A stretch of DNA of 64,000 nt, from the sequence record PX969468.1. One strand, written 5' to 3'. This DNA is from a phage. Below are positions 44,190 to 57,819 of this stretch, in pieces. The position numbers and the translations under genes were made by a program. The notes beneath the pieces are model-generated. The model had not been told where the DNA came from. It saw only the letters and a program-made list of their open reading frames with translations, and made no database searches. Within the stretch, counting starts at the first letter, position 1. The number at the start of each line of letters is the position of its first letter.

Positions 44190-44272
44190 CAAATACCTAT
44201 TGTAATTTACAGAAGGGGATGCTAAAATAGTGTCTCCTTCTATGTTGTTCAAATAAAATCGGAGATTCCATA

Positions 44273-44638
44273 ATGGAACAAATGAACGATCAAGCGTCGG
44301 TTGCGATGAACGAGCAAGAACAACCTCAAGAATTTTTCTTAGGGTTAAGTAAAGATCAAGTGTCTCTTCTGCTAGTGCTTTCTTCTTTCATGGGAAGACT
44401 TCAGGAGCTCACACAACAACCGGAGGCTGAACAATTATTTCAGGCTCTGCGTGAAGAAGAAAAATATCGTCGTTTGGACTATGCCTTAGGTTGGGTAGCT
44501 CAACAACGAGATATGCTGATGGCCCTCTCTGGGACCACAAGTTTTGCAATGGGCCTGTTGGCTCAAGTTCAGGACAAATTAATTCAAGCAGGGTTTGCAC
44601 ACACGGCAAACACTAACGAAGAACAAGGAGACAAATAA
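44273..44638 (+). CDS. Hypothetical protein (121 aa)
   Basis: promoter-like TTGTAA-17-TAAAAT upstream; RBS GGAGA. Confidence 0.45.
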   Translation: MEQMNDQASVAMNEQEQPQEFFLGLSKDQVSLLLVLSSFMGRLQELTQQPEAEQLFQALREEEKYRRLDYALGWVAQQRDMLMALSGTTSFAMGLLAQVQDKLIQAGFAHTANTNEEQGDK

Positions 44639-45864
44639 TGAGCGTTATTCAACAATTCGCTAACCCGATGAATCCGCGTGAAACTGTTTTACTGGCTCAC
44701 GGCATGATCAAGCGTGTTAGCATCAAGCCTATCAAAGGTGCTGATCCTACAACAGGTATTAAAACCACTGTGTGGCAAGGTAAGAAAATTGAGTCCAGCC
44801 ACACCATCTCTTTACTGATTTCTGAACTGGATTCCTCTGATAACCTACTTCAAGGTGGTGAAGAAGTTTGGATCAGTATGGGCGATAAGCTGCTTAAACC
44901 GGGTCATCAAGACTCTGTCTCTGTTAAAATTGATGACAAGTGGGAAACCGTAACGCCAGGATGGATCGTAAATATCCCTTTGAAGGCAAACGAGCATAAC
45001 GGTAAGACCTACTACAAAGGCTCACTGGCTAAGATGGTTAAGCTGGGTGCAGGAGAGGCTCCAGCAGCGACTCAGCAGCAAAAACCGCAACAAGGTGCAC
45101 AATCACAAGGCCAGAAGCAGAAACATCAGCAGAATGCCAATCAGGACGTTTTACGCATCTATGGTGATGTGACTCAGATTGTTGGCAACGTGGTTACTGT
45201 TAATGACCACAAGATTGGCGAAGGTGCTATGGTTGTAACTGATGAGCAGCTTAAAGACCTGGTGGTAGGTGGTCGTGTTGCAGCCATTGTTGACAAAGAC
45301 ACCGGAAACATTATCAGTGGTTTCAAGGCCTATCCTCCTAAGGCAGAGAACGGCACTCAAGGCTCTGGTGGCAAGCGTAAATCCTCTTACGACCCTATCG
45401 GTGTGGAAACGGGGCATAGCATCAATGCGTTGCAAATCATCCTGGATCGCGGGTTTAAGGTAGACGACCCACTAGGAGTGGCTAAAACACTACACGTAGT
45501 CACTATTGAGCTTAAGAAAGAGTATGCTCAAGCCACCAACCGAACTGAAGATGAAGTAGGTGCCAGTGTCGGTAATGCGGTGTTGAACGCTTGTCGCCGT
45601 ATTGACAAGAAAACGAAAGTTGATGATTTTGCAGCGGCAATTACTGCAGAAGCAAAAGATGTCTTGACTAATCTGGCTGAGCCGTTGTACGATTGGATCA
45701 AGAACGGTGCTGGGTCAACTGACCATCAAGAACCTCAGGCTGCCAAACAGGAAGCAGCTCCACAGCAAAACACTGTAGACGCTCCTCCTGTAAATGATGA
45801 GGAAGATGACCCAATGGATCAGAATCCAGCACAGTATGAGTTCGATGACTCGATCCCCTTCTGA
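44638..45864 (+). CDS. ssb: Single-stranded DNA-binding protein-like, with acidic C-terminal tip
   Basis: C-terminus ...EFDDSIPF resembles SSB acidic tip (DDDIPF); Gln-rich low-complexity linker. Confidence 0.55.
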   Translation: MSVIQQFANPMNPRETVLLAHGMIKRVSIKPIKGADPTTGIKTTVWQGKKIESSHTISLLISELDSSDNLLQGGEEVWISMGDKLLKPGHQDSVSVKIDDKWETVTPGWIVNIPLKANEHNGKTYYKGSLAKMVKLGAGEAPAATQQQKPQQGAQSQGQKQKHQQNANQDVLRIYGDVTQIVGNVVTVNDHKIGEGAMVVTDEQLKDLVVGGRVAAIVDKDTGNIISGFKAYPPKAENGTQGSGGKRKSSYDPIGVETGHSINALQIILDRGFKVDDPLGVAKTLHVVTIELKKEYAQATNRTEDEVGASVGNAVLNACRRIDKKTKVDDFAAAITAEAKDVLTNLAEPLYDWIKNGAGSTDHQEPQAAKQEAAPQQNTVDAPPVNDEEDDPMDQNPAQYEFDDSIPF

Positions 45865-45872
45865 GTCCAGTT

Positions 45873-46451
45873 ATGAAATGCAAACGTTGTGGGGAGGACA
45901 AGGAGGCCTCCGACTTCTATACCAGCAACAAATCAACGTGCAAAGAGTGTTGCAAGAAGGCCAGTAGAGAGTCTGACCAATTTGCTAGAGACTCTTCAGA
46001 AAAAGGTGTAATACGCGTGTTGTACAAGGCTCAAAAGTGCAACAGCAAGCAAAGAGGTCACCCTCCTCCGACTTACACCAAGAAAGAGTTTAAGGATTGG
46101 CTATACCTAAACGGTTACAAAGAGTTGTATGACCAATGGGTAGCCAGCGGATACGACAAAAGGAAAAAGCCTTCTTGTGACAGGATAGATGATTTCAAAG
46201 GATACTCTTTTGATAATATCCGTTTAACGACTTGGGGAGAAAATAAAGACAAGCAGACAGAGGATATTCTATTGCATAGAAGCACCAGCGGTAGACGGTG
46301 TAAAAACGTAAGAAGGCTGGACAGGAATGGCAACATTCTCAAAGAGTGGGTATCTCACAACTCTTGTAGGAGAGAAACCGGAATATGTGTTGATTACTAC
46401 ATTCATGAAAAAATTCCAGCCCCCGATGGGTACTTCTATGAATACTTTTAA
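45873..46451 (+). CDS. HNH homing endonuclease
   Basis: N-terminal CxxC..CxxC zinc motif; PSCDRIDDFKGYSFDNIRLTTWGEN resembles HNH_3 core. Confidence 0.6.
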   Translation: MKCKRCGEDKEASDFYTSNKSTCKECCKKASRESDQFARDSSEKGVIRVLYKAQKCNSKQRGHPPPTYTKKEFKDWLYLNGYKELYDQWVASGYDKRKKPSCDRIDDFKGYSFDNIRLTTWGENKDKQTEDILLHRSTSGRRCKNVRRLDRNGNILKEWVSHNSCRRETGICVDYYIHEKIPAPDGYFYEYF

Positions 46452-46466
46452 CACCTAGTTAACATA

Positions 46467-46495
46467 GCCCTGCCCGAAAGGGTGGGGCATTTTTG
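46467..46495 (+). terminator. Intrinsic terminator (identical stem-loop to 35469-35497)
   Basis: GCCCTGCCC-GAAA-GGGTGGGGC followed by ATTTTTG. Confidence 0.7.
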
Positions 46496-46513
46496 TATAA
46501 GGAGATCTGAAAA

Positions 46514-46930
46514 ATGACATTAGAAGATATCATTGTTAAACCTGAGAACTATAACCAATACAATCTATCAACCCAATCTGTGGACCTTGGATGCGCCACT
46601 GTCAGTGCGTGGCTGGTTAACGGAAAAGAGTTGGATAAATGCTTAGAAGCTCACATGACTGTGAACAAGTTCCTTGATGAAAATACTCACTGGCTGGAAG
46701 GTGCAGGTGTATACGCTTCGTGGCTAGAGAGTATGGGATTTGACTACCAATCTGAAGAGGGGTGGTGGAGCTATCTGGCTATCTGTCCAGAGACATTGCA
46801 ATGCTTCATGAAATATTCTGAAGATTTGGAGTACCGGGCGGTGGTTGACAGTGCTATTGCTCGTTATAGCCGTAAACCTTTTTCCCACGACATTAAAACT
46901 GTGGAAGAATTTGTTGAAGTTTTCTGTTGA
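46514..46930 (+). CDS. Hypothetical protein (138 aa)
   Basis: ORF with RBS AAGGAGA. Confidence 0.45.
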   Translation: MTLEDIIVKPENYNQYNLSTQSVDLGCATVSAWLVNGKELDKCLEAHMTVNKFLDENTHWLEGAGVYASWLESMGFDYQSEEGWWSYLAICPETLQCFMKYSEDLEYRAVVDSAIARYSRKPFSHDIKTVEEFVEVFC

Positions 46931-47026
46931 CACAGGTTGTAAGGTGTGCAATTATAACCTTGTAGAGCTGGAGGATGTGATGAACGAAGAAAACTGGGAT
47001 GTGTAACTAACAGGAGGCCACTGCCC

Positions 47027-47224
47027 ATGATTTATCGAATCCGTGTGAGAGAAGATGCACCAGGTTGTTACTTTGACTGGCGTGGGTGGTGGTTTCTCCA
47101 CCCAATGGATGGACTCACAGATAGAATGCTGGATGCTGCCCTTTACACAGATACCGACATAGAGTATAATCTTTACTTGAAAGATGGTATCGATAACGGC
47201 CTGTTTGAAGCAATTCCTGCGTAA
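47027..47224 (+). CDS. Hypothetical protein (65 aa)
   Basis: RBS AGGAGG. Confidence 0.4.
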   Translation: MIYRIRVREDAPGCYFDWRGWWFLHPMDGLTDRMLDAALYTDTDIEYNLYLKDGIDNGLFEAIPA

Positions 47225-47289
47225 GAGAATGTGATCGCCATGTTTTATGATCTTCCTGTAGCACCACCTATTGATCCTGGAGAACTACG

Positions 47290-47709
47290 ATGATTTATGA
47301 AATGCCAAAATTGATCCGTGACGATGCCCAAAACCACACCATTATTATGGGTAAACGCATGAATATCCTTTGCCGTAACGATTTCTGTGGTGTAGAATAC
47401 GTTGCAGACTACTTCGGTGAGAATGGTAAACACCCTGTTCAGTTCTTCCTTGACCATGAGGATAACATTATCTGGGAGTTTGAAACTGAAGATATCCGCA
47501 ACCTCTTCATCTTCCTCGGTGTCAAGGTTAAGGCCAATTTCGCGGAAGGTGAGTGCGACGATTGTGGATTTTATGAGGTGACAGACTTCTATCTCCCGAG
47601 TGGCAAGAACCTTTACTATGAGAGTCACTTCGGAAACACCAACATGCCTCAAAGCTGGGAAGAATTTTTCAGTATCGTAGAAGAGGAGCTGGCATACCGT
47701 GATTATTGA
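47290..47709 (+). CDS. Hypothetical protein (139 aa), overlaps macro-domain gene
   Basis: ORF with two Cys pairs (C..C, CDDC); 11-nt overlap with downstream gene. Confidence 0.45.
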   Translation: MIYEMPKLIRDDAQNHTIIMGKRMNILCRNDFCGVEYVADYFGENGKHPVQFFLDHEDNIIWEFETEDIRNLFIFLGVKVKANFAEGECDDCGFYEVTDFYLPSGKNLYYESHFGNTNMPQSWEEFFSIVEEELAYRDY

Positions 47710-48157
47710 TACTGTAAAGGGAGATTTAATCTCCCTTTTTAAGAGCGGTGCTGGTCACCTAATCCACGGTTGTAACTGCTTCCACACAATGGGTAAGGGC
47801 ATAGCAAAACAGATTGCCCGTGAGTTTCCTCAAGCATTGTCAGCCGACAAAGAGACCAGACACGGTTGCCTAAGTAAACTGGGTGCGTTCTCCCGATGGG
47901 AGCACTTATCTCCGAGAGGTATTGTCTACGGAATCAATCTGTATACTCAGTTCTACCCAGGGCCTAATGCTGAATATTTCTCAATCCTGAAAGGCTTTGA
48001 GCTAGTCAATGAGGTATTCGAGGGATCGACTTTACCATTCTACATCCCTAAGATCGGATGCGGTATAGGCGGTTTGAAGTGGGAGCACGTAGAGGACGTT
48101 ATTAACCTCGCCACTTTTGATATAGATATTATCGTGGTGGAGTACAAAGAGTGTTGA
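47699..48157 (+). CDS. Macro-domain protein (ADP-ribose binding/hydrolase-like)
   Basis: GDL..HGCNCFHTMGKGIAKQI resembles macro NAAN..GGGV..AI; IPKIGCGIGG resembles second Gly-rich motif; GTG start. Confidence 0.6.
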   Translation: MIIDTVKGDLISLFKSGAGHLIHGCNCFHTMGKGIAKQIAREFPQALSADKETRHGCLSKLGAFSRWEHLSPRGIVYGINLYTQFYPGPNAEYFSILKGFELVNEVFEGSTLPFYIPKIGCGIGGLKWEHVEDVINLATFDIDIIVVEYKEC

Positions 48158-48213
48158 CAGCTGACTTTTGAGATGGTATAGTCACCACAACGATTGAGAG
48201 AGGGAGCACCACT

Positions 48214-48414
48214 ATGGAGACTAAAATCTTAATTCTGGCTGTGATAGATACGACCGAAGGGGCCGTGTTCGAATCTGCAGGAGGGTATTTCTACCTGCCC
48301 TACGGAAAAATAACTTCCGAACCGAGTAAAGATTCAATCCTTAAAGTGTTCCCTTGTGCTTTCTGGCTGGAGATTCTGGTAGAAGATTGCAGAGGATTGG
48401 GGAGAGAATTATGA
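48214..48414 (+). CDS. Hypothetical protein (66 aa)
   Basis: RBS GAGGGAG; ATGA overlap with next gene. Confidence 0.4.
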   Translation: METKILILAVIDTTEGAVFESAGGYFYLPYGKITSEPSKDSILKVFPCAFWLEILVEDCRGLGREL

Positions 48415-48605
48415 GAAACAAGAAAGAGCTTTACTCTGGCGAGTGGATCAACGATCAACAGGTCGGAGAGGTAACCTGCTTCCGGTGTTTTACTCGGTAC
48501 AATCTTAAAACTGCACCAAAAAGTGTTCCAAAGACTGACGGTTATTACATAAAAGAACCTCATTGCCCAAAATGTAAATGCCGATTGTACTGGAGCAATC
48601 TATAA
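48411..48605 (+). CDS. Zinc-ribbon protein (64 aa)
   Basis: CFRCF ... CPKCKC. Confidence 0.45.
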   Translation: MRNKKELYSGEWINDQQVGEVTCFRCFTRYNLKTAPKSVPKTDGYYIKEPHCPKCKCRLYWSNL

Positions 48606-48668
48606 GAGGTTGACATCTGAAAACTGCAGTGTATAGTATACACATAAACTAACAGAGAGCGATGTATT

Positions 48669-48860
48669 ATGGTAATTTTTAACCGGGATGGTATCATAGT
48701 TAGACAGCACCCGTTCCTTGAATACTATCAAATTGAGCAATGGTGCTACGGGGATTGCAGTCACTCTTATGGGCAAAGTTGGGGATATCGCACAGTTTTT
48801 GAATCAACAGACCTTGACAAAGTAAGACAGAAAGTTTTAGAACTTATTAACAACAAGTGA
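48669..48860 (+). CDS. Hypothetical protein (63 aa)
   Basis: ORF. Confidence 0.4.
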   Translation: MVIFNRDGIIVRQHPFLEYYQIEQWCYGDCSHSYGQSWGYRTVFESTDLDKVRQKVLELINNK

Positions 48861-48870
48861 GTATCGTGCC

Positions 48871-49203
48871 ATGGTAACATTGGAAAGACGTAAAGCTATC
48901 GCCGCCACACTGGCAGACATCTTTTGGGATTGCAACTTAAAAGATACTCGAAATTGTGGCGCATCTGTAGATGTATTATTCCCACGGCCCACCATTGTTG
49001 CAATGGGAAACCTGCTCGATGTGGTATATGGAGCATGGGACAAGGAAGGTGGATTCTATATCTGGCAACCTGACTACGGGACTTGGAAAGAGGTTAGTGG
49101 TTCTTCGGACTTCACTCCTGCAGTGGCTAAAATGGATAGCTGGAAAATCTATGTCGGTAACGACATGGAACTGAAAGGCGAAATTGTTTACTGGTTACCT
49201 TAA
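48871..49203 (+). CDS. Hypothetical protein (110 aa)
   Basis: ORF. Confidence 0.45.
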   Translation: MVTLERRKAIAATLADIFWDCNLKDTRNCGASVDVLFPRPTIVAMGNLLDVVYGAWDKEGGFYIWQPDYGTWKEVSGSSDFTPAVAKMDSWKIYVGNDMELKGEIVYWLP

Positions 49204-49224
49204 GAAAGTCCAGGAGATAAAGTT

Positions 49225-49470
49225 ATGAACAAAGGGTGGACATTTGTAGACGGCGTTAAAAACATGCCTCTAGGAAAGTATATTGTAGCCATGGCAGATG
49301 AGAATGGCAATGTGGATTTCGGAGCTTGCGAGGTTGTTCTTGCAGGATCTGGTAACTATGTGGACAAAACCGGGATAATTAACGGTCAGTTCTACTTTGA
49401 TCACAACCCTGTTGTAGCGTATATGGCTATGCCAGAGTTCAAGTTCCCAAAGGAGGGTGCAGATGTTTAA
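49225..49470 (+). CDS. Hypothetical protein (81 aa)
   Basis: RBS CAGGAGA. Confidence 0.45.
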   Translation: MNKGWTFVDGVKNMPLGKYIVAMADENGNVDFGACEVVLAGSGNYVDKTGIINGQFYFDHNPVVAYMAMPEFKFPKEGADV

Positions 49471-49660
49471 GCTTAAATCTGCATGGAACATCGCTGTGGG
49501 GGACGAGATCCGTATCCCAGGTGGAAAGACCATTATGAAGATATCTCGTATCGAGTACGAAGGTGATCGTGTATTTCATATCTTTGCAGAGGATGGTCGA
49601 GAAATTTATATACAGGCAGGCTCTCACATCTATATTCGTAAGAAAGGGGACGACAAATGA
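49463..49660 (+). CDS. Hypothetical protein (65 aa)
   Basis: ATG after AAGGAGGG. Confidence 0.4.
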   Translation: MFKLKSAWNIAVGDEIRIPGGKTIMKISRIEYEGDRVFHIFAEDGREIYIQAGSHIYIRKKGDDK

Positions 49661-49983
49661 CAGAGATCATCGTTTCAACTGCAGGGTATGTATTCCTGAC
49701 AATCATTGCGCTGGCTATTCTGGTGGCGGTGTATGGATTTGTTATCCTGCCCATTCTTGAGACATTTAGTTTGTGTCGGTGTTGGAGAAAAGCTTACGGT
49801 CCACAACCATGGAAGGACTGGCCCCACCTGGTGCGCTTAGCGTTCTCTTATGCTTACGATCACTCCAGCAGTGCATGCATAACCGGATACCACGCCCACA
49901 ACTGGAGCTGGGAAGGGTTGAGGAAATGGAATGTTACAAAGACCATACCTCTGCGCATGTACAAAGGAAAAAGGAGGGATTGA
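49657..49983 (+). CDS. Small membrane protein (108 aa)
   Basis: N-terminal TM helix (YVFLTIIALAILVAVYGFVILPIL). Confidence 0.45.
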   Translation: MTEIIVSTAGYVFLTIIALAILVAVYGFVILPILETFSLCRCWRKAYGPQPWKDWPHLVRLAFSYAYDHSSSACITGYHAHNWSWEGLRKWNVTKTIPLRMYKGKRRD

Positions 49984-50627
49984 TGGGGATACCTGTTAAA
50001 GACAGAAAAATATGTGGTCGTGGAGTAAACGATTTAAAAGACAAAGTCCCAATGTACCAATCTGTTAATGGTAAGAGAGTACCAGAACCTCACTATGCTA
50101 CATGGAAAGCATTATTCCAGAGGTGCTACGGCGATAACTCAAAGTACCATACAGGTTGTGAAGTTGTAGAAGATTGGTGGTTGTTCTCAGAATTCTGGAA
50201 ATGGATGGATACACAAGAGTGGAAAAGAGACGCTAAGAAGTTCACTCTTGACAAAGACCTGAAAATCCCCGGAAACAGAATATACTCCCCAGAAACATGT
50301 ATGTTTGTTCCACCACAAATAAACACCTTATTTGGCATAAGACAGGCAGCACGAGGGGATTTACCTTTGGGTGTGACACTTAGAAAAGATGTAAACAAGT
50401 ATCTCGTGCATTGTCATCAAGATGGAAAAATTGTTCATGGTGGTCATTTCGATGATCCGCAGATAGCACACAAGGTGTGGCAAGAAATGAAACTTGAGGA
50501 GATGAAGCTTCAAGCTATTAAAAACAAAGATGAGATTTGGCTGTTCGCCATTAAACGTGCAATAACTATCCTTGAGAATGATTTGAAAAATAATAAGGAG
50601 ACTATAACATTGGTGAAATTTATTTAA
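49983..50627 (+). CDS. Homing-endonuclease-associated DNA-binding/HNH-like protein
   Basis: ATG after AAGGAGGG; YATWKALFQRCYG..YHTGCEVVEDWWLFSEFWKWM motif common in phage HNH/AP2-type proteins. Confidence 0.45.
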   Translation: MGIPVKDRKICGRGVNDLKDKVPMYQSVNGKRVPEPHYATWKALFQRCYGDNSKYHTGCEVVEDWWLFSEFWKWMDTQEWKRDAKKFTLDKDLKIPGNRIYSPETCMFVPPQINTLFGIRQAARGDLPLGVTLRKDVNKYLVHCHQDGKIVHGGHFDDPQIAHKVWQEMKLEEMKLQAIKNKDEIWLFAIKRAITILENDLKNNKETITLVKFI

Positions 50628-50639
50628 GATATTTATGGT

Positions 50640-51250
50640 GGTATTTATTTTAAAATTATAAAAATTTTAGGTGATGAGGGAAAATATGTAATGGATTTTC
50701 CCTTATTTATCAGATATTTGCAGATATTTGGAAATCCTTAGAAAATCAGAAAATGGATCGAAAACTAAAATGGATTTTTCAGAGTAGGCGCGACAAGCTG
50801 AATAACTCATCCTATCGTTTGCACCATATTCCAGGCCACCATTATAGATTTCCCACACATGCTAACCTCCCTCTACTAGAACTTCCTCCACTTACCCTTG
50901 ACCTTCTATGGTAACAATCTAACCACTATCTTGAAGTTGCGGTGCAGCTTTCCAGGTACTCGATCTACTTTTCATTTCAGGGCTTGGATTTTCTGAAAAT
51001 TTTTCTCGATAAATTTCTCAGTACTCGATCTGTTTTTCGTTTTCTGAATCGGATTTTCTGGAAATCGTTCCGGATCTAGGCCTGAAATTTTTAGGGACGA
51101 AATCGATTTTTCGTTTTCAGAAATGGATTTTTAAAATTTCTATATGGGAATATTTTAGTGGATACTATTTTATAGGAAATTGTTACGGAGGGTAATTAGC
51201 GTGCTAATTAAATTTATTAAATGCGAGGAGTTCTCATTTAGAATTTTGAA
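50640..51250. repeat. AT-rich non-coding region with short direct repeats (origin-like)
   Basis: AAATGGATTTTTC / GGATTTTCTG copies, tandem CAGATATTTG x2, GTACTCGATCT x2, GATTTTTCGTTTTC x2. Confidence 0.6.
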
Positions 51251-51278
51251 TGATAATCATTCTCGTTTGCAGAATAAC

Positions 51279-51308
51279 GGGCAGGCCCGGTGATTGTCTC
51301 CCGGCCCC
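51279..51308. repeat. Left copy of 25-bp inverted repeat GGCAGGCC(C/T)GGTGATTGTCTCCC
   Basis: Matches reverse complement of 61065-61089 at 23/25 positions; partial third copy at 51419-51437. Confidence 0.7.
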
Positions 51309-51675
51309 TACTGCCCCGGCTTGTTATTATAGTAACACACAGGACAAAGAAAGCAAGAAGTTTTTGCATAAATTTTTAGACGATAATGATAATCGTTCTC
51401 ATTTCATGCAGCGCCCATCCCCGGTGGTTGTCTCCCCCGTCACCGGTGCCTGCCGTCCTTTCGATATGTATATTGTGCCACCTGGCGGGGCCGCTGTCAA
51501 CACTTTTCAAAAAATTTTTTCTAACCTGATGCGCTAACCGCTGCAACCTGGCGGGGCCAGCCTGGCAGGACCTAACTGACCAGGTAGGGGAGAATGAAGG
51601 CTTGCAAACCTGGTGGGCCTATGCTATAGGATAGGTAACAATTGAAGAGGAGGTACAAAAAATGAAAGGTAATAT

Positions 51676-51840
51676 ATGATCCCCCTGGAAAATGTAGCTA
51701 TTAATGACACTGAGGCTATCGCCCTGGTTGAAAAGGCTATGGCGGGAGCGTTGGAACATAAAGAAGAGTACGAAAAAATGATGGTTAACCTGGCAGGGGC
51801 GGCGGCTGGAGAATTCTACCCAAAAAATAATTTTAACTAA
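51676..51840 (+). CDS. Possible small protein (54 aa), below ORF-track cutoff
   Basis: ATG after GGAGG and a 5-codon leader mini-ORF. Confidence 0.3.
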   Translation: MIPLENVAINDTEAIALVEKAMAGALEHKEEYEKMMVNLAGAAAGEFYPKNNFN

Positions 51841-51843
51841 TGG

Positions 51844-51872
51844 TTGACAGCTCGGACAGTTCTTGTTATTCT
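51844..51872 (+). promoter_or_regulatory. sigma70-like early promoter
   Basis: TTGACA, 17-nt spacer, TATTCT. Confidence 0.55.
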
Positions 51873-51925
51873 TATCCTCGCAAGGTGAACAACACCACAC
51901 CAATTAACAGAGAGGATAAAAAATC

Positions 51926-52123
51926 ATGAACGCCTACGGAATTAAAGTACGTCGCAACACTCGCCAGGTGGTCACCAATCAAGTGATTTGCCGGGTGGAT
52001 GTAACCATCAACAACGGGCAAGGCCTTTATAAATTTCGTCGCGGTCATAGCTATACCCTGCAGCAGCTTAACCGTTGCGCCCTGACAAAAGGTCAGATCA
52101 ACCACTGGTTTAATAAAAAATAA
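51926..52123 (+). CDS. Early-region small basic protein (65 aa)
   Basis: RBS AGAGAGG; own promoter. Confidence 0.5.
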   Translation: MNAYGIKVRRNTRQVVTNQVICRVDVTINNGQGLYKFRRGHSYTLQQLNRCALTKGQINHWFNKK

Positions 52124-52136
52124 ATATTGACACGTA

Positions 52137-52165
52137 GTCTGACACAAAATATACTTAAATCACAA
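52137..52165 (+). promoter_or_regulatory. sigma70-like early promoter
   Basis: TTGACA, 17-nt spacer, TATACT. Confidence 0.65.
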
Positions 52166-52187
52166 AAGACACTAAGAGGATAAAATC

Positions 52188-52586
52188 ATGAAAACTACAA
52201 CCTTTAATTTTGACAATGCCGACTTCTCTTTTTCTGATGTTAAGAATTGCCGCCGTGATCGTGGATTTTACAAGGCTTATAATCTGGTTGGCCTAGACGA
52301 TGATAATAATTTGCACGAAGTAGCGGAGATCCGGTACTATGCCGCCGCCAGCGGTAACACTAACTACTGCGTTTTTTGGATACACGACAACAAGAATAAT
52401 AAGTACGGTTATACTGGTGGCAAGGCGAGCGGTCACGGTTATGATAAGGCCAATGCAGCACTTGAGAGCGCGTTAAATGCTATGGGGATCACTGCCAACG
52501 GCTGGATCTATGAAGATGAGTTTTTGTCAGCACTTGCTGCCCACCTGGGGTATAAAAAGCACATTGTGACATGCGCCCACGAATAA
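52188..52586 (+). CDS. Early-region protein (132 aa)
   Basis: RBS AAGAGGA; own promoter. Confidence 0.55.
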   Translation: MKTTTFNFDNADFSFSDVKNCRRDRGFYKAYNLVGLDDDNNLHEVAEIRYYAAASGNTNYCVFWIHDNKNNKYGYTGGKASGHGYDKANAALESALNAMGITANGWIYEDEFLSALAAHLGYKKHIVTCAHE

Positions 52587-52597
52587 AAAAAAAATTA

Positions 52598-52654
52598 TTG
52601 ACACGCTGCAAAATTAAAGTAAACTAGACACAAAAGGCGGGAATGTTTCCCGCC
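52598..52654 (+). promoter_or_regulatory. Early promoter plus 5'-leader GC hairpin
   Basis: TTGACA-N16/17-TAAACT, then GGCGGGAA-TGT-TTCCCGCC hairpin, CA-rich spacer, SD, ATG 52675. Confidence 0.55.
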
Positions 52655-52674
52655 AACACAAAGGAAAAAAGATC

Positions 52675-53070
52675 ATGAATAAGAACGTACGCCGCATCAT
52701 GAACGAACTGGCAAACGATGAAAAAATTATTGATATGCATTTGGTAAACATTTGCCGCCGTTGTGTAACATATAACAACCGCGCCGCAAAAGCGCGTGAG
52801 ATGAACGCAAAAGGCACCTTAAAGCCCTTTCAGGTGGTTGTAAAATCTATAACCAGTGCAGCAGGCCAGGCGCATGACCACAACAACGGGAGCACTAATA
52901 TTGATCCGTCTTACGTAATGAAACGGATCCGGACTTGCAAGAATAAAGAGCAGGTGTATAACGTCATAGATTGGCTGGACTCCCTGGGCGATGTGGTTTA
53001 TAATAGGTTTTCTGCAGCTATCGAGATCCAGCTTGACAGACTGGACGGGAAAGTACTGAAAACTTACTAA
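52675..53070 (+). CDS. Early-region protein (131 aa)
   Basis: RBS AAAGGAAAAAAG; own promoter and leader hairpin. Confidence 0.55.
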   Translation: MNKNVRRIMNELANDEKIIDMHLVNICRRCVTYNNRAAKAREMNAKGTLKPFQVVVKSITSAAGQAHDHNNGSTNIDPSYVMKRIRTCKNKEQVYNVIDWLDSLGDVVYNRFSAAIEIQLDRLDGKVLKTY

Positions 53071-53082
53071 GTTTATTTTTAG

Positions 53083-53119
53083 ATGGCCTTGACGCCAGGG
53101 CCATCAATAAAGTAAACTA
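53083..53119 (+). promoter_or_regulatory. Palindrome-embedded promoter element, copy 1
   Basis: GATGGCC-TTGACGCCAG-GGCCATC with -35 TTGACG in the centre and TAAACT at -10. Confidence 0.6.
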
Positions 53120-53149
53120 ATCCCAGTTAAGCTAAAAGGAGGCTTGAAG

Positions 53150-53269
53150 ATGAGCACTACACGCCAGCACACAAAGGTAACTATTATCGTTTGCATCATT
53201 GGTTATATCCTGGCGCAAATGTTGATGGGTAGCGCCAACGGTGTCGCAAAATTTTTCTTAAACTTTTAA
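53150..53269 (+). CDS. Possible small hydrophobic peptide (39 aa)
   Basis: ATG after AAAAGGAGG immediately downstream of palindromic promoter; TM-like core. Confidence 0.4.
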   Translation: MSTTRQHTKVTIIVCIIGYILAQMLMGSANGVAKFFLNF

Positions 53270-53324
53270 TTGACAAGCTAACTTAGATCGGTATACTAAA
53301 CACATCAACGGGAAAACTTCCCAG
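53270..53324 (+). promoter_or_regulatory. Early promoter plus 5'-leader hairpin
   Basis: TTGACA-N16-TATACT, then GGGAA-AAC-TTCCC hairpin. Confidence 0.6.
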
Positions 53325-53347
53325 AACACACAAAAGGAGAAAACACC

Positions 53348-53689
53348 ATGACCACTATGACCGCCGCAGAAAAAGCTATTCAGATCGCTGCCCTGAAAAA
53401 ACAGATCGCAGACCTTGAGAATAAGATCGATAACTTTGAAATCGACGAGGACAAGTACGACGAAAACTATGATGAATGGTTAGACGAGATCTACGGCGAA
53501 ATTATGATCGGAAACATTTCTTTTCTTCCGTCGCGTATCCTCAAGGAGCTAGATCCTATCGCTTACCGCTGCGGATTTAGCGACTACATCGACAGCCTGG
53601 ATATTGAGGACGATGAAGAATACCAGGAATTACAGACAGAGTTGGAAGAAGCAAAAGAAGAGCTTGCGGAGCTGGAAGAAAACGAGTAA
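53348..53689 (+). CDS. Early-region highly acidic protein (113 aa)
   Basis: RBS AAAGGAGA; Asp/Glu-rich throughout. Confidence 0.55.
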   Translation: MTTMTAAEKAIQIAALKKQIADLENKIDNFEIDEDKYDENYDEWLDEIYGEIMIGNISFLPSRILKELDPIAYRCGFSDYIDSLDIEDDEEYQELQTELEEAKEELAELEENE

Positions 53690-53702
53690 GATTATTTTTA
53701 GA

Positions 53703-53738
53703 TGGCCTTGACTCCAGGGCCATCAATAAAGTAAACTT
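53703..53738 (+). promoter_or_regulatory. Palindrome-embedded promoter element, copy 2
   Basis: GATGGCC-TTGACTCCAG-GGCCATC then ATAAAGTAAACT. Confidence 0.6.
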
Positions 53739-53778
53739 TATACTGTTAACACTGAACTAATGCATAGGAGTTAAAACC

Positions 53779-54024
53779 ATGGCAGCACTAATCACTAAAT
53801 ATTACGCCCCTACCAACACCAAAAGCGCCCGTATCATGGTAAAAGGCTTCGGACGTAAAAAGGTTTACACCTGGGATTATGCCTTAGACATGGAAGACAA
53901 CTACACCAACGCGATGACAGATTTTATTAATGAGCTGAACACGCGGATCTTGACAAATTATAAAATTACCGATATTGCCTATATAGGGGAAGGCGGGATC
54001 TGTTTTGTCGGTATCGTCAAATAA
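53779..54024 (+). CDS. Early-region protein (81 aa)
   Basis: RBS TAGGAG. Confidence 0.5.
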   Translation: MAALITKYYAPTNTKSARIMVKGFGRKKVYTWDYALDMEDNYTNAMTDFINELNTRILTNYKITDIAYIGEGGICFVGIVK

Positions 54025-54100
54025 ACTGTTTTTTCGGTGGTCCTGGTAGCAGGGCCATCTATAAAGATAGTTTATCAATACAATGAAAGGAGAAAGTAAC

Positions 54101-54454
54101 ATGATCAGTGGGGCAAGTTTTATTATTGGCGCTATTGCTACGGCTTTAATTGTAAACAAGATCCAATCTAAAAACGAAAAAGAGAGCAACGCGCTCACAG
54201 AATACCCATTTTGGATATTCAACGACAATGAAGACTACATTATCAAGTACAAGAATGAGAAGGGCGACCAGGTAACACCGCGACCGATCCCGGCCTACAA
54301 GATGCAAGAAACACTATACCGCCTAAAGGCTGGAGGCGCAAAAATCGTAGACTTTTGGGGATATGATTGCAAGGATCAGGAGGTTATAAAACGGCGTATC
54401 CGGGCTATTCAGGCCAATATTGAAGTTAGCAAGGGGGGAATATATGAAGATTAA
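54101..54454 (+). CDS. Early-region membrane protein (117 aa)
   Basis: ATG after AAAGGAGAAAG; N-terminal TM helix. Confidence 0.5.
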   Translation: MISGASFIIGAIATALIVNKIQSKNEKESNALTEYPFWIFNDNEDYIIKYKNEKGDQVTPRPIPAYKMQETLYRLKAGGAKIVDFWGYDCKDQEVIKRRIRAIQANIEVSKGGIYED

Positions 54455-54641
54455 TTTTGAGAAGATTGTAAAGCGATCTCATGATTCCGAAGAGCTGCCG
54501 GAACGCCGCCAGCGTAACAATAAACTGAATAAGCCAAAAAGATTTGGGAAGATCTGGCGGAATCATTATGATCGTAAATTGCCGGGCCTCCTTTTGGAAC
54601 GTGAACGGCAGGCGGAACGATACCGCCATAAAGACAAATAA
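54444..54641 (+). CDS. Early-region small basic protein (65 aa)
   Basis: ATG after AAGGGGGGAA; Arg/Lys-rich. Confidence 0.45.
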   Translation: MKINFEKIVKRSHDSEELPERRQRNNKLNKPKRFGKIWRNHYDRKLPGLLLERERQAERYRHKDK

Positions 54642-54659
54642 CAACCAACGCCCCGCCAT

Positions 54660-54689
54660 CGTGCGGGGCTTTTTATTTCTACCCTACGA
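54660..54689 (+). terminator. Intrinsic terminator
   Basis: CCCCGC-CATCGT-GCGGGG followed by CTTTTTATTT. Confidence 0.7.
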
Positions 54690-54884
54690 ATAGCGCCCCT
54701 GGTTGGCCCCACAACGCCAAAAAGGCCCCACCTATGCAATCGCCCCCCTTTAACCTGAAAACATCGCTTAGGGCCGTTTTATGGCGTTAAAAATATCATT
54801 GACAGTGATTTTATTTAAAGCTTGACATCTAAAATATTCTAGATATACTAATCACATCAAAGCGAGAAGTAAGGAGTAAACGCC

Positions 54885-55145
54885 ATGCGTAAATTAAAAA
54901 ATTTTGATAAAGTTGATATTGTCCTGAATAATTTTTACTACTGCAATAACAAGGCCGTTTGGTGGCGTGATAGTTCCACCGATAAAGTCAAGGCGCGCTT
55001 TCTCCAGGGGCACTGGCAAGGCCGCCCAGTGATTAAAATCATGGGGCAATTGGTAGCGTTTAAAAATTGCCGCCGTGTTGATGACGTTGAAGAGATTTTA
55101 AACATTTTGCGCCACAATAATTTAAAAAATAGTGTTGACAAGTAA
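54885..55145 (+). CDS. Early-region protein (86 aa)
   Basis: RBS AAGGAG; promoter-like TTGACA-N16-TATACT at 54827-54856. Confidence 0.5.
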   Translation: MRKLKNFDKVDIVLNNFYYCNNKAVWWRDSSTDKVKARFLQGHWQGRPVIKIMGQLVAFKNCRRVDDVEEILNILRHNNLKNSVDK

Positions 55146-55191
55146 ATCTCAATAAGTATAATTAAAAACACAGGCGGGAAAACTTCCCGCC
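55135..55191 (+). promoter_or_regulatory. Early promoter (overlapping upstream stop) plus leader hairpin
   Basis: TTGACA-N16-TATAAT, then GGCGGGAA-AAC-TTCCCGCC hairpin. Confidence 0.65.
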
Positions 55192-55219
55192 ACTAACAAA
55201 GAAAACAGGAGAAAATATC

Positions 55220-55843
55220 ATGACCACCGTTAACATTACCACAGGTTACAATTTAGCTTTCGACGTGCTGACCGACGAACAAAAAGAAAAAGCCGTGGAA
55301 ATGGTCCGCGAAAGAGAAGAACACAGCGGGGATAACTTTTTTGCAGAAAGTGTAATTGAGTACTATAAAGAATATATCTTTCCAGAGTACGGCCTTGAAG
55401 ATACCGATGTACATTGGTCAGGCTTTTGGTGCCAGGGTGACGGCGCGTCAATCAGTGCGGAAAACGTGGATTTAGAAAAATTCTTGCGTAAAGTCAAGTC
55501 TCTGACTAAATTCCGCTCAATTCGTCACTTGTTCGGCACAATGCACGATGGCGAGTTATCCGCAAGTGTTGAGCGTGATCCATATAGCCGCTATAGTCAC
55601 GAAAACACTGTAAACGGATACATCGATACTACATGGCTAGACCTGACCACCAAACAAGAAAACAAAGTGGAAGATCTGGAAGAGCTGATCACCGAGACGG
55701 TACGGGAGTTATCCCGCAAGGTTTACGTAGACCTGGAGGAAGCCTATCTTGAACAATTCACCGCCGAAAACTTGATCGGCCTTATCGAGGCCAATGATTG
55801 GCGGTTTGATGTCGATGAACACGGTGAGATGACTTTTTCATAA
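55220..55843 (+). CDS. Early-region acidic protein (207 aa)
   Basis: RBS CAGGAGAAAA; own promoter and leader hairpin. Confidence 0.55.
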   Translation: MTTVNITTGYNLAFDVLTDEQKEKAVEMVREREEHSGDNFFAESVIEYYKEYIFPEYGLEDTDVHWSGFWCQGDGASISAENVDLEKFLRKVKSLTKFRSIRHLFGTMHDGELSASVERDPYSRYSHENTVNGYIDTTWLDLTTKQENKVEDLEELITETVRELSRKVYVDLEEAYLEQFTAENLIGLIEANDWRFDVDEHGEMTFS

Positions 55844-55931
55844 ATAAAGTGTTGCAATAACCTAAAAACCTGCTATATTAAAACTCAAGGGGCAAGACGT
55901 TTGCCCCACACAAAACAAAGAGGTAAACATT

Positions 55932-56312
55932 ATGAAAAACACTACTAAAGCTATTGACACCGTTATGTTTAACCTGGTTACATTCCGTGAAGATATGAAA
56001 GATCTTCCACGTGAAACAGTGTGCGATCACATTGAAAACTATCGCAAACTAATCAAAGAGTTGCCTTTAAAACGTGACCAGTATGCGGCTAACGCTATGC
56101 TTAACGCCATGATCAAAAAGATGATTCAGTGTGATTTAACTCTGGCCTATGATTATGCAGGTGGTCGTTTTGCAGTATACAATCAGCCCGTGCCTGGTAT
56201 GAGCACCACCGAAGAATTGCACGCGTTAAATCTGAAACAAGATGTATGGGATAACATGCCCCGCGTGGTGGTGTGGGCAGAAAGCGGAAAGATTTACGGC
56301 GATAATTTTTAA
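55932..56312 (+). CDS. Early-region protein (126 aa)
   Basis: promoter TTGCAA-N16-TATATT upstream, hairpin GGGGCAA..TTGCCCC, RBS AGAGG. Confidence 0.55.
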   Translation: MKNTTKAIDTVMFNLVTFREDMKDLPRETVCDHIENYRKLIKELPLKRDQYAANAMLNAMIKKMIQCDLTLAYDYAGGRFAVYNQPVPGMSTTEELHALNLKQDVWDNMPRVVVWAESGKIYGDNF

Positions 56313-56376
56313 TCAGGTAACAGGCGGCATATTTGCCGCCTTATTGTTAAACAGAACTGCAAAAGAGGTACATAGA

Positions 56377-56748
56377 ATGGAATTTATTATTTTGGCTGTA
56401 GTAGTTGCCTTGTTCAACGCCTGGATCGCTGGCAAGATAGGTAGATCCGCTTTTCTATGGTTTGTTATATCTATTTTCCTGGGAGTGGTTGCAACTATTG
56501 TATTGGTTATCCTTGCAATTGTTGACAAGGGCGATAATAGAAAGGGTAAAGTGTTTTCCGACCTGTATGACGCACAAACGTTTGTCAACGCCTATTATAG
56601 TGATCTTCCAGTCTCCCTACGCTGCAGCCTGGCACAACAGGTTTTTGATGAGGCTAAAACCAGAGACCAAGCCCATGAGATATGTTTAACTGAAGCGGAT
56701 CGCCTATTTGAGAGGAATAGAAAATATGTGGACCAGCCGTTTAAATAA
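56377..56748 (+). CDS. Early-region membrane protein (123 aa)
   Basis: ATG after AGAGG; two predicted TM helices; leader hairpin GGCGGCA-TATT-TGCCGCC. Confidence 0.5.
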   Translation: MEFIILAVVVALFNAWIAGKIGRSAFLWFVISIFLGVVATIVLVILAIVDKGDNRKGKVFSDLYDAQTFVNAYYSDLPVSLRCSLAQQVFDEAKTRDQAHEICLTEADRLFERNRKYVDQPFK

Positions 56749-56947
56749 CGCCACGTTAATTAATCCCTTTAGTGAAGATTTGAAGCCAGCCGCCTGGCGT
56801 GACGGATTCAATAACGAACGCTTTATTTTCAGGCCTGATCTTGAGGAATTTTATAACAATGGATCGAACAACAGCGGAGATAATTTTTCTTGTGGTGTGC
56901 GTGGTGATAGGACTCCTGGGGGCCATTGTAAACCACGTCACCACTAA
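56726..56947 (+). CDS. Possible small protein (73 aa); alternative overlapping frame also possible
   Basis: ATG after GAGAGG; overlaps 56859-56984 frame that would encode a TM peptide. Confidence 0.3.
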   Translation: MWTSRLNNATLINPFSEDLKPAAWRDGFNNERFIFRPDLEEFYNNGSNNSGDNFSCGVRGDRTPGGHCKPRHH

Positions 56948-56967
56948 CAGGAGGGAAGGGGGAGACG

Positions 56968-57087
56968 ATGACAACCAAGGATAAGCCATGCGCTGATAAG
57001 GTGCGCCGTGTTATGGTATGGCTTGAGATTATCGCCCTTGAAATATTGTTAGGCGTAGGGATGTACTTTATCGCTGTAAGTAACTAA
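56968..57087 (+). CDS. Possible small membrane peptide (39 aa)
   Basis: ATG after AGGAGGGAAGGGGGA; hydrophobic core; terminator follows. Confidence 0.35.
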   Translation: MTTKDKPCADKVRRVMVWLEIIALEILLGVGMYFIAVSN

Positions 57088-57091
57088 GAGC

Positions 57092-57125
57092 GGCCCCCGA
57101 TCATGGGGGCCTATCTTTTAAAAAA
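57092..57125 (+). terminator. Intrinsic terminator
   Basis: GGCCCCC-GATCAT-GGGGGCC followed by TATCTTTTAAAAAATTTTTC. Confidence 0.7.
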
Positions 57126-57225
57126 TTTTTCTTCCGGGGTGTTGCAATCCGGTCCGGAATGTGGATAATAACAATCAACGGGGAGCTAATCCCCACCACC
57201 ACAAAAACCAGAAAGGAGAAACAAA

Positions 57226-57426
57226 ATGAGCAACAATATCCGCGTTATTAACTTCAAAAAAGAAGAAAAAATTGCCGTGCTGATTGACGGTCAAGAAATC
57301 TTCAAGGGCGACTATGAAGATCATCAAACGGCGATTAGTATCACTCGCGTGATTGGTTATCATAATTTCTACCCCCAAGGCGCTGAGGCAGCAGTTAAAC
57401 GAATCAAAGAGATTGTAGGCCTGTAA
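57226..57426 (+). CDS. Early-region protein (66 aa)
   Basis: promoter TTGCAA-N17-GATAAT upstream, hairpin GGGGA..TCCCC, RBS AAGGAGA. Confidence 0.5.
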   Translation: MSNNIRVINFKKEEKIAVLIDGQEIFKGDYEDHQTAISITRVIGYHNFYPQGAEAAVKRIKEIVGL

Positions 57427-57438
57427 AATTTATTTTTA

Positions 57439-57475
57439 GATGGCCTTGACTTCAGGGCCATCGATAAAGTAAATT
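57439..57475 (+). promoter_or_regulatory. Palindrome-embedded promoter element, copy 3
   Basis: GATGGCC-TTGACTTCAG-GGCCATC then GATAAAGTAAATT. Confidence 0.6.
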
Positions 57476-57510
57476 TAAACCCTGTTAAAATACCACGCAG
57501 TTAACAAGGA

Positions 57511-57819
57511 GTGATAGACATGTTTATCCAGGCTAATAATCTTTATTTCTTTGATGGTCAGATCGTAGATGGTGTGGAAGTGGAGATCACCGGGTGCCCT
57601 GGCGGTCAGGCTATGACTTTTCGGAATAATGCCTTTGATGATTCTCATATCGTTATGAGAATGGAAGTTACGAAGCTGGACGACAAGAAAACACTTATTG
57701 ACTATTCTGTGAAAGATCATCCAGACTACCGCATGATCCATGGTGATTTGTGCATTGTTGACCGTGACAAGGTGGGCGGCATTGTGATCGCTATTGTGAA
57801 CGATGTTTTCTCAAACTAA
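57511..57819 (+). CDS. Early-region protein (102 aa)
   Basis: RBS AAGGAG. Confidence 0.5.
   Translation: MIDMFIQANNLYFFDGQIVDGVEVEITGCPGGQAMTFRNNAFDDSHIVMRMEVTKLDDKKTLIDYSVKDHPDYRMIHGDLCIVDRDKVGGIVIAIVNDVFSN

Follow-up and report, generated by a model that had tools for sequence, protein, structure and literature searches.

The window analyzed here is a 64,000-nucleotide stretch of phage DNA (sequence record PX969468.1), and its subject is a gene-free stretch, 50628 to ~51660, that bears an array of repeats, palindromes and predicted promoters. It lies between an open reading frame (ORF; 49773–50627) for an HNH endonuclease of PHROG-953 and the first downstream small gene, which has a ribosome-binding site and begins at ~51662; solid ORFs follow again from 51926 and 52188. 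The original prediction had placed a region without plausible ORFs at 50640–51250: its gene-free status stands and all the repeats it listed are present, but its limits are too narrow. A megablast search with 50400–51700 returned 122 phage records, nearly all of them Escherichia Vequintavirus at 90–98% identity; this genus comprises the rV5-like E. coli myoviruses, with genomes of ~136 kb. Direct terminal repeats of 458–459 bp have been published for Vequintavirus (PMC6563267, PMC7471380). The EdH4 record carries the same 459 bp at its start and end, and both ends map to 63542–64000 of the window with 94% identity; the window thus represents the last 64 kb of the packaged genome, and the flagged region lies 12.4–13.4 kb (~9–10% of the genome length) from its physical end. 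A genome terminus or pac site was rejected for the flagged region because the terminal repeat sits 12.4 kb away, as was identity with the ‘non-coding’ box of the rV5 paper (104013–106618 in rV5), which is the terminal region and hence another locus (PMC3606486). Capture of host DNA was likewise rejected, no similarity to any E. coli genome having been found.

Short repeats recur throughout the left and central parts (Table 1), with GGATTTTC at 50694, 50987 and 51052, AAATGGATTTTTC at 50768, AAATGGATTTTTA at 51121, GATTTTTCGTTTTC at 51103 and GTTTTTCGTTTTC at 51031. The degenerate motif AWYGGATTTTY has four exact matches in the 64 kb, compared with 0.51 expected, and none of 100 shuffles reached four; all four lie within 50690–51132. 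Exact copies of GTACTCGATCT at 50956 and 51021 form the cores of a direct repeat present three times (copies of 47–62 nt at 50946, 51011 and 51085, spaced by 65 and 74 bp and 70–74% identical). These iteron units are made up of an A-box, a T-rich run (TTTTCGTTTTC), a B-box (YGKATTYTC, which takes the form GGATTTTC in this genome) and an A/T tract; further B-box-like sites are grouped beside the GATATTT repeats, and both kinds of box are confined to this locus in ~136 kb. Compared with shuffled sequence, the iteron block (50946–51140) displays no strand-specific RNA structure (fold z −1.15 and −0.02 on the two strands), and in two other genera the iteron fold z is low on both strands, which points to inverted repeats in the DNA, for example TCTCGA...TCGAGA.

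The segment between iterons and palindromes is AT-rich: 51140–51250 has a GC content of 29%, 51126–51185 is the second least stable 60-bp window of 49–53.5 kb, and a small hairpin (AATTAGCGTGCTAATT, 51194–51209) lies inside it. Most other lineages examined have some of their least stable windows at the equivalent position and at the GATATTT cluster; low duplex stability alone is not specific to origins. The palindromes belong to a family with the consensus AAATGAGAAT-N-ATTCTCATTT, for which nine strand-hits with up to three mismatches were found in the window against 0.25 expected. They are present at two loci only, namely this region (51249, 51385 and a degenerate copy at 51220) and the terminal repeat (63839, 63857 and 63973), where the last copy ends 9 nt from the genome end and the GATATTTG at 63951 adjoins a palindrome. 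The other 72 kb of EdH4 add only the second copy of the terminal repeat and one weak match within a gene (~84369, three mismatches, one strand). Two more GATATTTG lie within ~450 bp inside the other EdH4 end (L138 35582 and 35698).

Table 1 Features of the gene-free stretch, replication genes and terminal-repeat sites in the window; invariant columns and mean pairwise identity refer to an alignment of eight Vequintavirus genomes
Feature	Positions	Strand	Invariant columns	Mean pairwise identity	Remarks
PIF1 helicase	32502–33872				Replication gene
DnaB-like primase/helicase	36269–38347				PF03796; relatives annotate primase/helicase
PolA, family A DNA polymerase	38406–40835				PF00476, 27.9 bits, below Pfam's 34.3-bit cutoff; intron-interrupted
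3′ flank of sporadic HNH cassette	50628–50720				AT-rich; most relatives homologous only from ~50722
Tandem CAGATATTTG doublet	50711–50730	+			GATATTTG at 50713 and 50723; left edge of conserved module
Left cluster of B-box-like sites	50730–50796		80%		Both orientations: GGAAATCC, GAAAATCAG, AAAATGGATCGAAAAC, AAAATGGATTTTTC
Variable spacer (CT-rich tract)	50797–50950	+	43%	80%	C-rich, G-poor; rut-like rightward; G-rich, R-loop-prone RNA predicted leftward
Iteron block	50951–51140		88%	95%	
Iteron unit 1	50946–51010	+			Direct repeat; A-box GTACTCGATCT (50956), T-rich run, B-box TTGGATTTTC (50984–50993), A/T tract
Iteron unit 2	51011–51084	+			A-box GTACTCGATCT (51021), GTTTTTCGTTTTC, B-box ATCGGATTTTC (51048), inverted B-like GGAAATCG
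Iteron unit 3	51085–51140	+			Direct repeat; degenerate A-box GGGACGAAATCGAT, GATTTTTCGTTTTC, B-box AAATGGATTTTT (51121)
AT-rich segment	51126–51219				Least stable duplex between iterons and palindromes
Palindrome array	51220–51267				Degenerate site 51220–51239 and 19-bp palindrome AATGATAATCATTCTCGTT (51249–51267), 29 bp apart
Palindromes, GC-rich motif and P1	51220–51360		92%	98%	
GC-rich motif	51270–51320				CAGAATAACGGGCA-N5-GGTGATTGTCTCC in imperfect GC-rich hairpin; most conserved part between genera
Predicted promoter P1	51326–51356	−			TTGCTT, 16 bp, TACTAT with TGn at 51356–51329 (or 19 bp, TATAAT); sigma-70 matrix
Second unit with P2	51361–51505		94%	98%	
Second palindrome	51382–51403				GATAATGATAATCGTTCTCATT; Fur-box-like
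Second copy of GGTGGTTGTCTCC motif	51405–51471		94%		GC-rich; duplicate of palindrome-plus-motif unit
Predicted promoter P2	51472–51500	−			TTGACA, 17 bp, CACAAT with TG; sigma-70 matrix
Variable right edge	51501–51660	+			Indel-rich; four AACCTGGCGGG copies; promoter-like TTGCAA, 17 bp, TATAGG at 51602
Neighboring 65-amino-acid gene	51926–52123		89%	96%	
Palindromes and GATATTTG in the 459-bp terminal repeat	63839–63991				Palindromes at 63839, 63857 and 63973; one GATATTTG (63951)

Within the genus, 50955–51500 is nearly invariant, including iteron unit 2 (51011–51084), and the non-coding core is at least as constrained as coding sequence (Table 1). The region is found in 122 Vequintavirus-level records, compared with ~118 in which the primase/helicase is present with at least 95% identity; it is thus essentially universal in the genus. 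Sixteen ‘Campylobacter phage’ records (MG0656xx, host C. jejuni) are 95–98% identical to E. coli Vequintaviruses both here and in the primase/helicase, and their host labels look doubtful. The earlier claim that the stretch holds no plausible ORF is borne out by the eight genomes: changes in the open frames of the tract display no codon-phase bias (24/22/20, P = 0.83), and among relatives these frames undergo radical amino-acid changes and an internal frame change and stop at differing positions. The number of ‘hypothetical proteins’ annotated here varies from one to five among GenBank records, and these annotations are mutually inconsistent, disagreeing in frame and strand. A plus-strand frame, 50753–50914, is open in six of the eight relatives, as expected of G-poor sequence, which rarely yields stop codons, and the small ORFs were rejected because the alignment carries no coding signature. 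Rfam gave nothing better than E = 0.59 in 50500–52300 and nothing in six related loci, and ARAGORN found no tRNA in the window.

A sensitive blastn search matched 249 records in all, and outside Vequintavirus only ~80–150 bp align, around 51208–51358, at 72–88% identity. The syntenic gaps of ~1–1.3 kb were read in Phapecoctavirus (ukendt), Mydovirus (Seu621), Certrevirus (CR8), Seunavirus (KE23), Pectobacterium phage POP18 and phage ABPH49, together with IMG/VR contigs of 146–153 kb. The same geometry recurs in ~11 lineages drawn from Vequintavirinae and Stephanstirmvirinae, which share GATATTT(G) repeats, a spacer measuring ~229–244 bp, three iteron units of ~65–78 bp, an AT-rich stretch of ~150 bp, 19-bp palindromes at intervals of 29 bp, the GC-rich motif and leftward promoters of the sigma-70 type. 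With a conserved CAGAAT anchor at window 51270 as the reference point, nine lineages have their three A-boxes ((G)GTNCTCGATCK) at about −310, −240 and −170, and the palindromes, of which other genera have two to four copies, lie at −21, −50, −79 and sometimes −108, an exact 29-bp period. GATATTT is present two to five times at the same place in every genus examined, its last copy at −520 to −565 overall and at −529 to −565 in nine lineages; in Vequintavirus, Mydovirus and Certrevirus, exactly 229 bp separate this cluster from the first A-box, across spacers that share no sequence. Clusters of B-box-like sites analogous to that at 50730–50796 are found in Mydovirus, Seunavirus and Certrevirus sequences.

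The neighbors of this array turn over. Upstream, the genera have the HNH gene, a 109-amino-acid ORF, a NADAR-domain protein or unrelated ORFs of ~275 amino acids; downstream, four different PHROG families are represented. As the flanking genes differ, the array behaves as an autonomous cis-acting unit rather than as the regulatory region of one conserved gene. The HNH gene lies beside the region in only 3 of the 122 related records, all others being homologous from ~50722, and it is not homologous to the ~275-amino-acid ORFs at the same position in other genera. It is a mobile, homing-type insertion outside the module, and was rejected as a functional partner; its adjacency, which the original prediction had taken to favor an origin or regulatory hub, is accordingly a weak argument. 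The left ~90 bp of the gene-free stretch (50628–50720) likewise belong to the flank of this sporadic cassette; this flank holds a B-box copy of its own (AATGGATTTTC, 50690–50700), a 12-bp inverted repeat (50674–50706) and one GATATTT (50628). At the other edge, a 2-nt insertion directly after the ATG of the first downstream small gene (ATGAAAGGTAATATATGA, 51662–51680) distinguishes this phage from seven other Vequintaviruses and truncates the downstream frame, the ORF restarting at 51676.

Two leftward promoters, P1 and P2, were predicted with a rough sigma-70 weight matrix. By hand reading, all 13 lineages (13/13) have a minus-strand TTGnnn and TAnnnT, the latter often with TGn, separated by 16–17 bp directly to the right of the GC-rich motif; these P1 elements are kept though the spacer sequences are unrelated, which is the pattern expected of a functional promoter. 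In 7 of the 7 lineages scanned, the minus strand carries the strongest promoter-like sites of the gap, and each of these lineages has a strong minus-strand site at the relative position of P2. Among intergenic minus-strand sites in 44–62.3 kb, P2 alone scores 10/12 or higher, in a range where ~17 plus-strand sites do so, and no intrinsic terminator is predicted on either strand between P1/P2 and the iterons. The predicted outcome is leftward non-coding transcription across the palindromes into the AT-rich segment and the iterons, opposing every neighboring gene. For the GC-rich hairpin, RNAalifold gives no consistent structure, and single-sequence folds are significant in only some lineages, with a slight preference for the minus sense. 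The ~17 near-consensus plus-strand sites (at least 10/12) of 44000–62300 typically stand one per small gene; this range has 60 promoter-like sites where 37 were expected and 31 terminator-like sites where 16 were expected, a pattern that fits an early-gene field on both sides of the region.

At the variable right edge, the rightward promoter-like site at 51602 precedes the first downstream small gene. The four copies of AACCTGGCGGG(GCC) are at 51479, 51545, 51559 and 51607, and two of them lie in the spacers of promoter-like sites that face opposite ways, minus-strand P2 and plus-strand TTGCAA-17-TATAGG. GC-rich spacers (CCGGGCC, CCTGG) are also found at promoter-like sites in the gaps of other genera, often with a CACAAT −10 element, and such sites may constitute a distinct promoter class or a further binding site. 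In other genera (L005 2650–2790, L006 2615–2750, L007 2650–2790 and L004 2680–2790), a highly conserved GC-rich element of ~100 nt lies between two predicted leftward promoters, after a tandem CTTTACA motif. It consists of CTACCGGCGATCCACCTTCC, a hairpin of variable sequence and GTTAGCCCCGCCTTTTCGCCGTGGGGTGGCG; the position of the hairpin is kept, with few compensatory changes in either sense, and the element matches no Rfam family and could represent a small RNA not yet described. Its place in Vequintavirus is taken by the duplicated palindrome-plus-motif unit. Mydovirus, Seunavirus and Phapecoctavirus further harbor, within an otherwise rightward region, a leftward gene of 63 amino acids (L005 2827–3018, minus strand, with equivalents in L007 and L004; Pfam DUF7170, PHROG 4653) with its own promoter-like site, which is absent from the window.

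The strand-asymmetric CT-rich tract of the original prediction is real: 50821–50940 consists of 63% C + T and 10% G, and 50804–50903 (38 C, 8 G) is the most C-rich, G-poor 100-nt plus-strand window of the 64 kb, in which C − G over such windows has a mean of −3.3 and a standard deviation of 7.5. The tract lies untranslated, ~150–300 nt past the stop codon of the last upstream gene, and folds no better than shuffled sequence (z +0.99). Among the eight Vequintaviruses the spacer has indels that are not multiples of three; its sequence is free to vary, but its composition is kept. The C>G bias is a local maximum in 5 of 13 lineages, moderate in most, absent in one, and strong only in Vequintavirus and two other lineages; it is therefore a tendency and not a fixed feature. 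Rho utilization (rut) sites are C-rich, G-poor, unstructured and untranslated stretches of RNA of at least 80 nt, and the tract has each of these properties; it is most simply read as a candidate Rho loading site. The resemblance, which concerns the CT-rich tract only, extends to its length of more than 100 nt, to its location immediately behind the final gene of an operon read rightward, where no intrinsic terminator is present, and to a composition conserved in the absence of a conserved sequence; it differs in that the bias is weak or absent in some genera, and the Rho role is a prediction from composition. Read leftward, the tract would give RNA with 38% G and 8% C, which could be prone to persistent R-loops.

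Taken together, the flagged stretch is, as judged from these comparisons, the left two-thirds of a conserved, autonomous, cis-acting non-coding module of ~50685–51500. The module is under strong purifying selection, has a fixed geometry and is unique in the genome apart from the motifs shared with the terminal repeat. Its cross-genus architecture strengthens the choice between replication origin and regulatory hub put forward in the original prediction as the best class of explanation, although both positional arguments offered for it were weak or wrong: besides the HNH gene, the region had been placed directly downstream of the replication genes, which in fact end ~9.8 kb upstream, with ~20 small ORFs between. 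Within this class, we tentatively favor a lytic replication origin with its control region, bearing iterons and activated by transcription. The three clustered direct repeats of a candidate binding unit and the adjacent AT-rich element of low stability are what an iteron origin presents, and the promoters predicted from consensus matches, at a position conserved across lineages, are directed into that AT-rich element. The replisome is T7-like, with PolA, a DnaB/gp4-like primase-helicase and a PIF1 helicase (Table 1); a group I intron (Rfam RF00028, 64.7 bits) occupies 40820–41055, at the 3′ end of the PolA ORF.

We infer protein binding, leftward transcription, Rho action and replication initiation from these features, as follows. 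Host RNA polymerase would start leftward at the tandem P2 (51500–51472) and P1 (51356–51326), opposing every neighboring gene, and the transcripts would traverse the palindromic operators at 51382–51403, 51249–51267 and 51220–51239, where a bound dimeric repressor could gate transcription. Transcription would then enter the easily melted segment (51126–51219) that abuts the iterons (50946–51140). The second box cluster and the GATATTTG repeats (50690–50796), held ~230 bp from the iterons, would allow a putative box-binding protein to build a looped or wrapped complex that helps to load the T7-like primase/helicase and PolA. The spacer (50797–50950), as a Rho loading site, would end untranslated rightward read-through ahead of the iterons; transcribed leftward, its G-rich RNA could form a persistent R-loop.

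Iteron-type origins such as lambda ori, P1 oriR and RSF1010 oriV likewise combine direct repeats of a binding unit with an easily melted AT-rich segment, and have GC-rich and palindromic elements alongside in a compact non-coding module better conserved than its surroundings. The units here differ in being composites of A-box and B-box of 65–78 bp, compared with 18–22 bp, and the phage module has no DnaA boxes or adjacent initiator gene, has a second box cluster ~230 bp off, and is an origin by prediction. The closest functional analogy may be, again tentatively, the primary origin of T7, to which iterons and a repressor gate would have been added. In T7, the tandem promoters phi1.1A and phi1.1B fire into an AT-rich segment; here, too, two tandem (predicted) promoters are aimed into such a segment. 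The phage also has a replisome of the T7 kind and a linear genome whose direct terminal repeats are short, and the site is internal, 9–15% of the genome length from one end. By contrast, the phage promoters are of the host sigma-70 type and oppose the flanking genes, the iterons and operator palindromes have no counterpart in T7, and priming by the transcript is hypothetical.

Several observations weigh against an origin at this site. P1 and P2 are consensus predictions. The palindromes recur in the terminal repeat, which would agree with a regulator acting in transcription or at the genome ends no less than with an origin factor. The window has three matches to the DnaA box TTWTNCACA, none of them in 50600–51700; A-tracts, examined for helical phasing or curvature, have no consistent ~10.5-bp period; and GATC is present only three times in the iterons, not above the genome background (314 observed, 315 expected). 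In other genera GATC is ~3-fold enriched locally, largely because it is part of the box. A putative DNA N6-adenine methyltransferase encoded by the genus (EdH4 108389–109207; L138 8389–9207) could matter for A-boxes that contain GATC, which is not enriched in the iterons of this phage. GC skew does not switch at the region, where the cumulative skew keeps rising and only local sign changes, due to the C-rich tract, are seen; this is a weak criterion for phages, and in rV5 the skew shifts only where the direction of transcription changes, an origin having been sought there and not located (PMC3606486). Phapecoctavirus has the three units replaced by a different pair of ~50-bp repeats, with GATATTT and four palindromes kept. 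The adjacent small genes, searched for a DNA-binding regulator or initiator, yielded no informative family. ICP1, the nearest relative with an origin mapped by coverage (~60 kb) and with a primase/helicase 48% identical to that of this phage, has no large gene-free region or shared motifs there. The literature searched contains no origin, initiation (marker frequency, two-dimensional gels, autonomous replication) or transcriptome data for this phage group.

A second complex gene-free region, 62370–63540, separates the terminal repeat from the last gene, whose intrinsic terminator is at 62376–62395. The AAAGTGTCA repeats of this region at 63455–63545 hold several GTGTC, the recognition pentamer of T7-type primases; it also contains GTGTAAAC repeats, TTGTTAAC/TTGTTAAT repeats, ATAGTTGCCTTG inverted repeats and a perfect 18-bp inverted repeat (63054/63188). 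This region is a candidate for an equal, alternative or second origin, or for a packaging signal, which further tempers the assignment of an origin to the module.

The main rival is a purely transcriptional control hub, a serious contender if on balance an unlikely one, in which a repressor, Fur or a phage protein, would act at the palindromes on leftward and terminal-repeat promoters, the leftward promoters would make a non-coding or regulatory RNA, and the iterons and GATATTTG repeats would be sites for regulators or nucleoid proteins that loop the DNA, with no start of replication. The palindromes are indeed operator-like (19 bp, dyad-symmetric, in exact 29-bp arrays), and their recurrence at a second locus, which is suggestive of a small regulon rather than of one origin, is explained by such a hub at least as well as by an origin. 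The conservation of the leftward promoters, the surrounding dense field of strong rightward early-type promoters, and, in other genera, the ~100-nt GC-rich element and the leftward DUF7170 gene after further leftward promoters all agree with it. However, the neighbors on both sides are not conserved between genera, which leaves no obvious conserved target gene; the palindromes stand clear of the −35 and −10 elements of the predicted leftward promoters; and a fixed module of ~550 bp that includes three units of 70 bp exceeds the size expected of a simple operator region. The iterons, moreover, lack strand-specific RNA structure, Rfam gives no match, and covariation lends the hairpin no clear support. 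That the repeats encode a non-coding RNA with a structure of its own, or RNA units arrayed in tandem like a mimic of a type III antitoxin, is very unlikely: three tandem units of ~65–74 nt do lie downstream of leftward promoters, and the relative phiTE encodes a repeat RNA that counters ToxIN (PMC3475682), but the iterons fold no better than shuffles on either strand and have no Rfam hit, and no tRNA lies in the window. The phiTE pseudo-ToxI itself was rejected as a counterpart, its locus lying between tRNA-Tyr and phiTE_203, near terminase, with a 36-nt period and unrelated sequence. That the stretch consists of small protein genes, as the GenBank annotations and the mostly open plus-strand frame might suggest, or of chance repeats in AT-rich low-complexity sequence, is scarcely credible given the conflicting frames and strands, the substitution pattern, motif counts far above shuffles and a geometry conserved across genera.

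A structural site for DNA entry or for the genome ends, where host or phage proteins would bind during entry, end pairing or circularization, is a further and quite improbable alternative, suggested by the T5 injection-stop region. That region is untranslated, ~1.7 kb long, lies at 7.9% of the genome, has repeats and palindromes in the same order among relatives, exceeds the flanking ORFs in conservation, has inverted repeats in common with a second locus closer to the end, and in some phages has an HNH gene among its repeats (10.1101/866236). The module resembles it in many formal respects, being a cis-acting untranslated array of repeats and palindromes ~8–10% from a genome end (12.4–13.4 kb in ~136 kb), with an order conserved across relatives, conservation above that of the flanking ORFs, elements (the palindrome and GATATTTG) common to the terminal repeat, and a sporadic HNH insertion. 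It differs in the terminal repeat, which measures 459 bp compared with ~10 kb in T5, and in having no DnaA boxes, which in T5 occur in pairs and have been proposed as the conserved feature. The strong early-type promoters and the small genes that flank it left and right, moreover, suggest that it is no early/late boundary; two-step injection is not known for rV5-like phages with contractile tails; and phiTE, a relative with the same module, has been reported to be circularly permuted and would thus have no fixed end (PMC3475682).

On the preferred reading as on that of a control hub, the palindromes would be bound by a protein, which could be host Fur or, equally possibly, a phage protein. The E. 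coli Fur box is GATAATGATAATCATTATC, with a 7-1-7 form of TGATAATnATTATCA. The sites here share its dyad symmetry and AT-richness: 51382–51400 (GATAATGATAATCGTTCTC) matches 17 of the 19 consensus positions, with none expected in shuffles, TTGAATGATAATCATTCTC (51246–51264) matches 15 of 19 and the terminal-repeat copies 12–14 of 19 (the last two by hand count), and one IMG/VR relative keeps 16 consecutive consensus positions (AATGATAATCATTATC); an IMG/VR 16-mer scan for the palindrome was too unspecific and was not used. By contrast, the phage family consensus has G/C at positions at which Fur favors T/A, the sites are arrayed with a period of 29 bp and recur in the terminal repeat, and no iron-related gene lies near them. 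The Fur-like sites overlap neither the −35 nor the −10 element of P1 or P2, lying at ~+65 to +83 of the predicted P2 start and upstream of the P1 −35, and the only overlapping plus-strand promoter-like site (TTGCAT, 18 bp, GATAAT; score 8.3) loses its −10 T in other Vequintaviruses. That they are real, high-affinity sites for host Fur, arrayed ahead of the putative origin or of the leftward promoters and lying only a few bases from either end of the genome, is improbable. The literature searched contains no account of Fur boxes in virulent rV5-like phages.

Relative to that literature, the module, its cross-genus geometry, the leftward promoters and the Fur-like palindromes are new, while in kind the module resembles known origins and control regions. 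It is among the few non-coding features conserved over the whole group of rV5-like phages (Vequintavirinae and relatives), which are widely used in therapy and biocontrol work, and GenBank leaves it blank or covers it with spurious ‘hypothetical proteins’. It provides a precise candidate for an origin or master control region, with iterons, an operator array, two leftward starts predicted near 51465 and 51320 and a candidate Rho site, and would offer a handle for engineering, such as phage-dependent plasmid amplification or conditional replication. Were the likeness to Fur boxes functional, a virulent phage would read or manipulate the iron status of its host: Fur could couple leftward transcription or the initiation of replication to host iron state or, alternatively, the sites on amplified genomes could titrate Fur, derepress host iron uptake and feed the iron-dependent ribonucleotide reductases of the phage. 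An origin-like module conserved in two subfamilies of lytic phages would then receive input from a metal sensor of the host.

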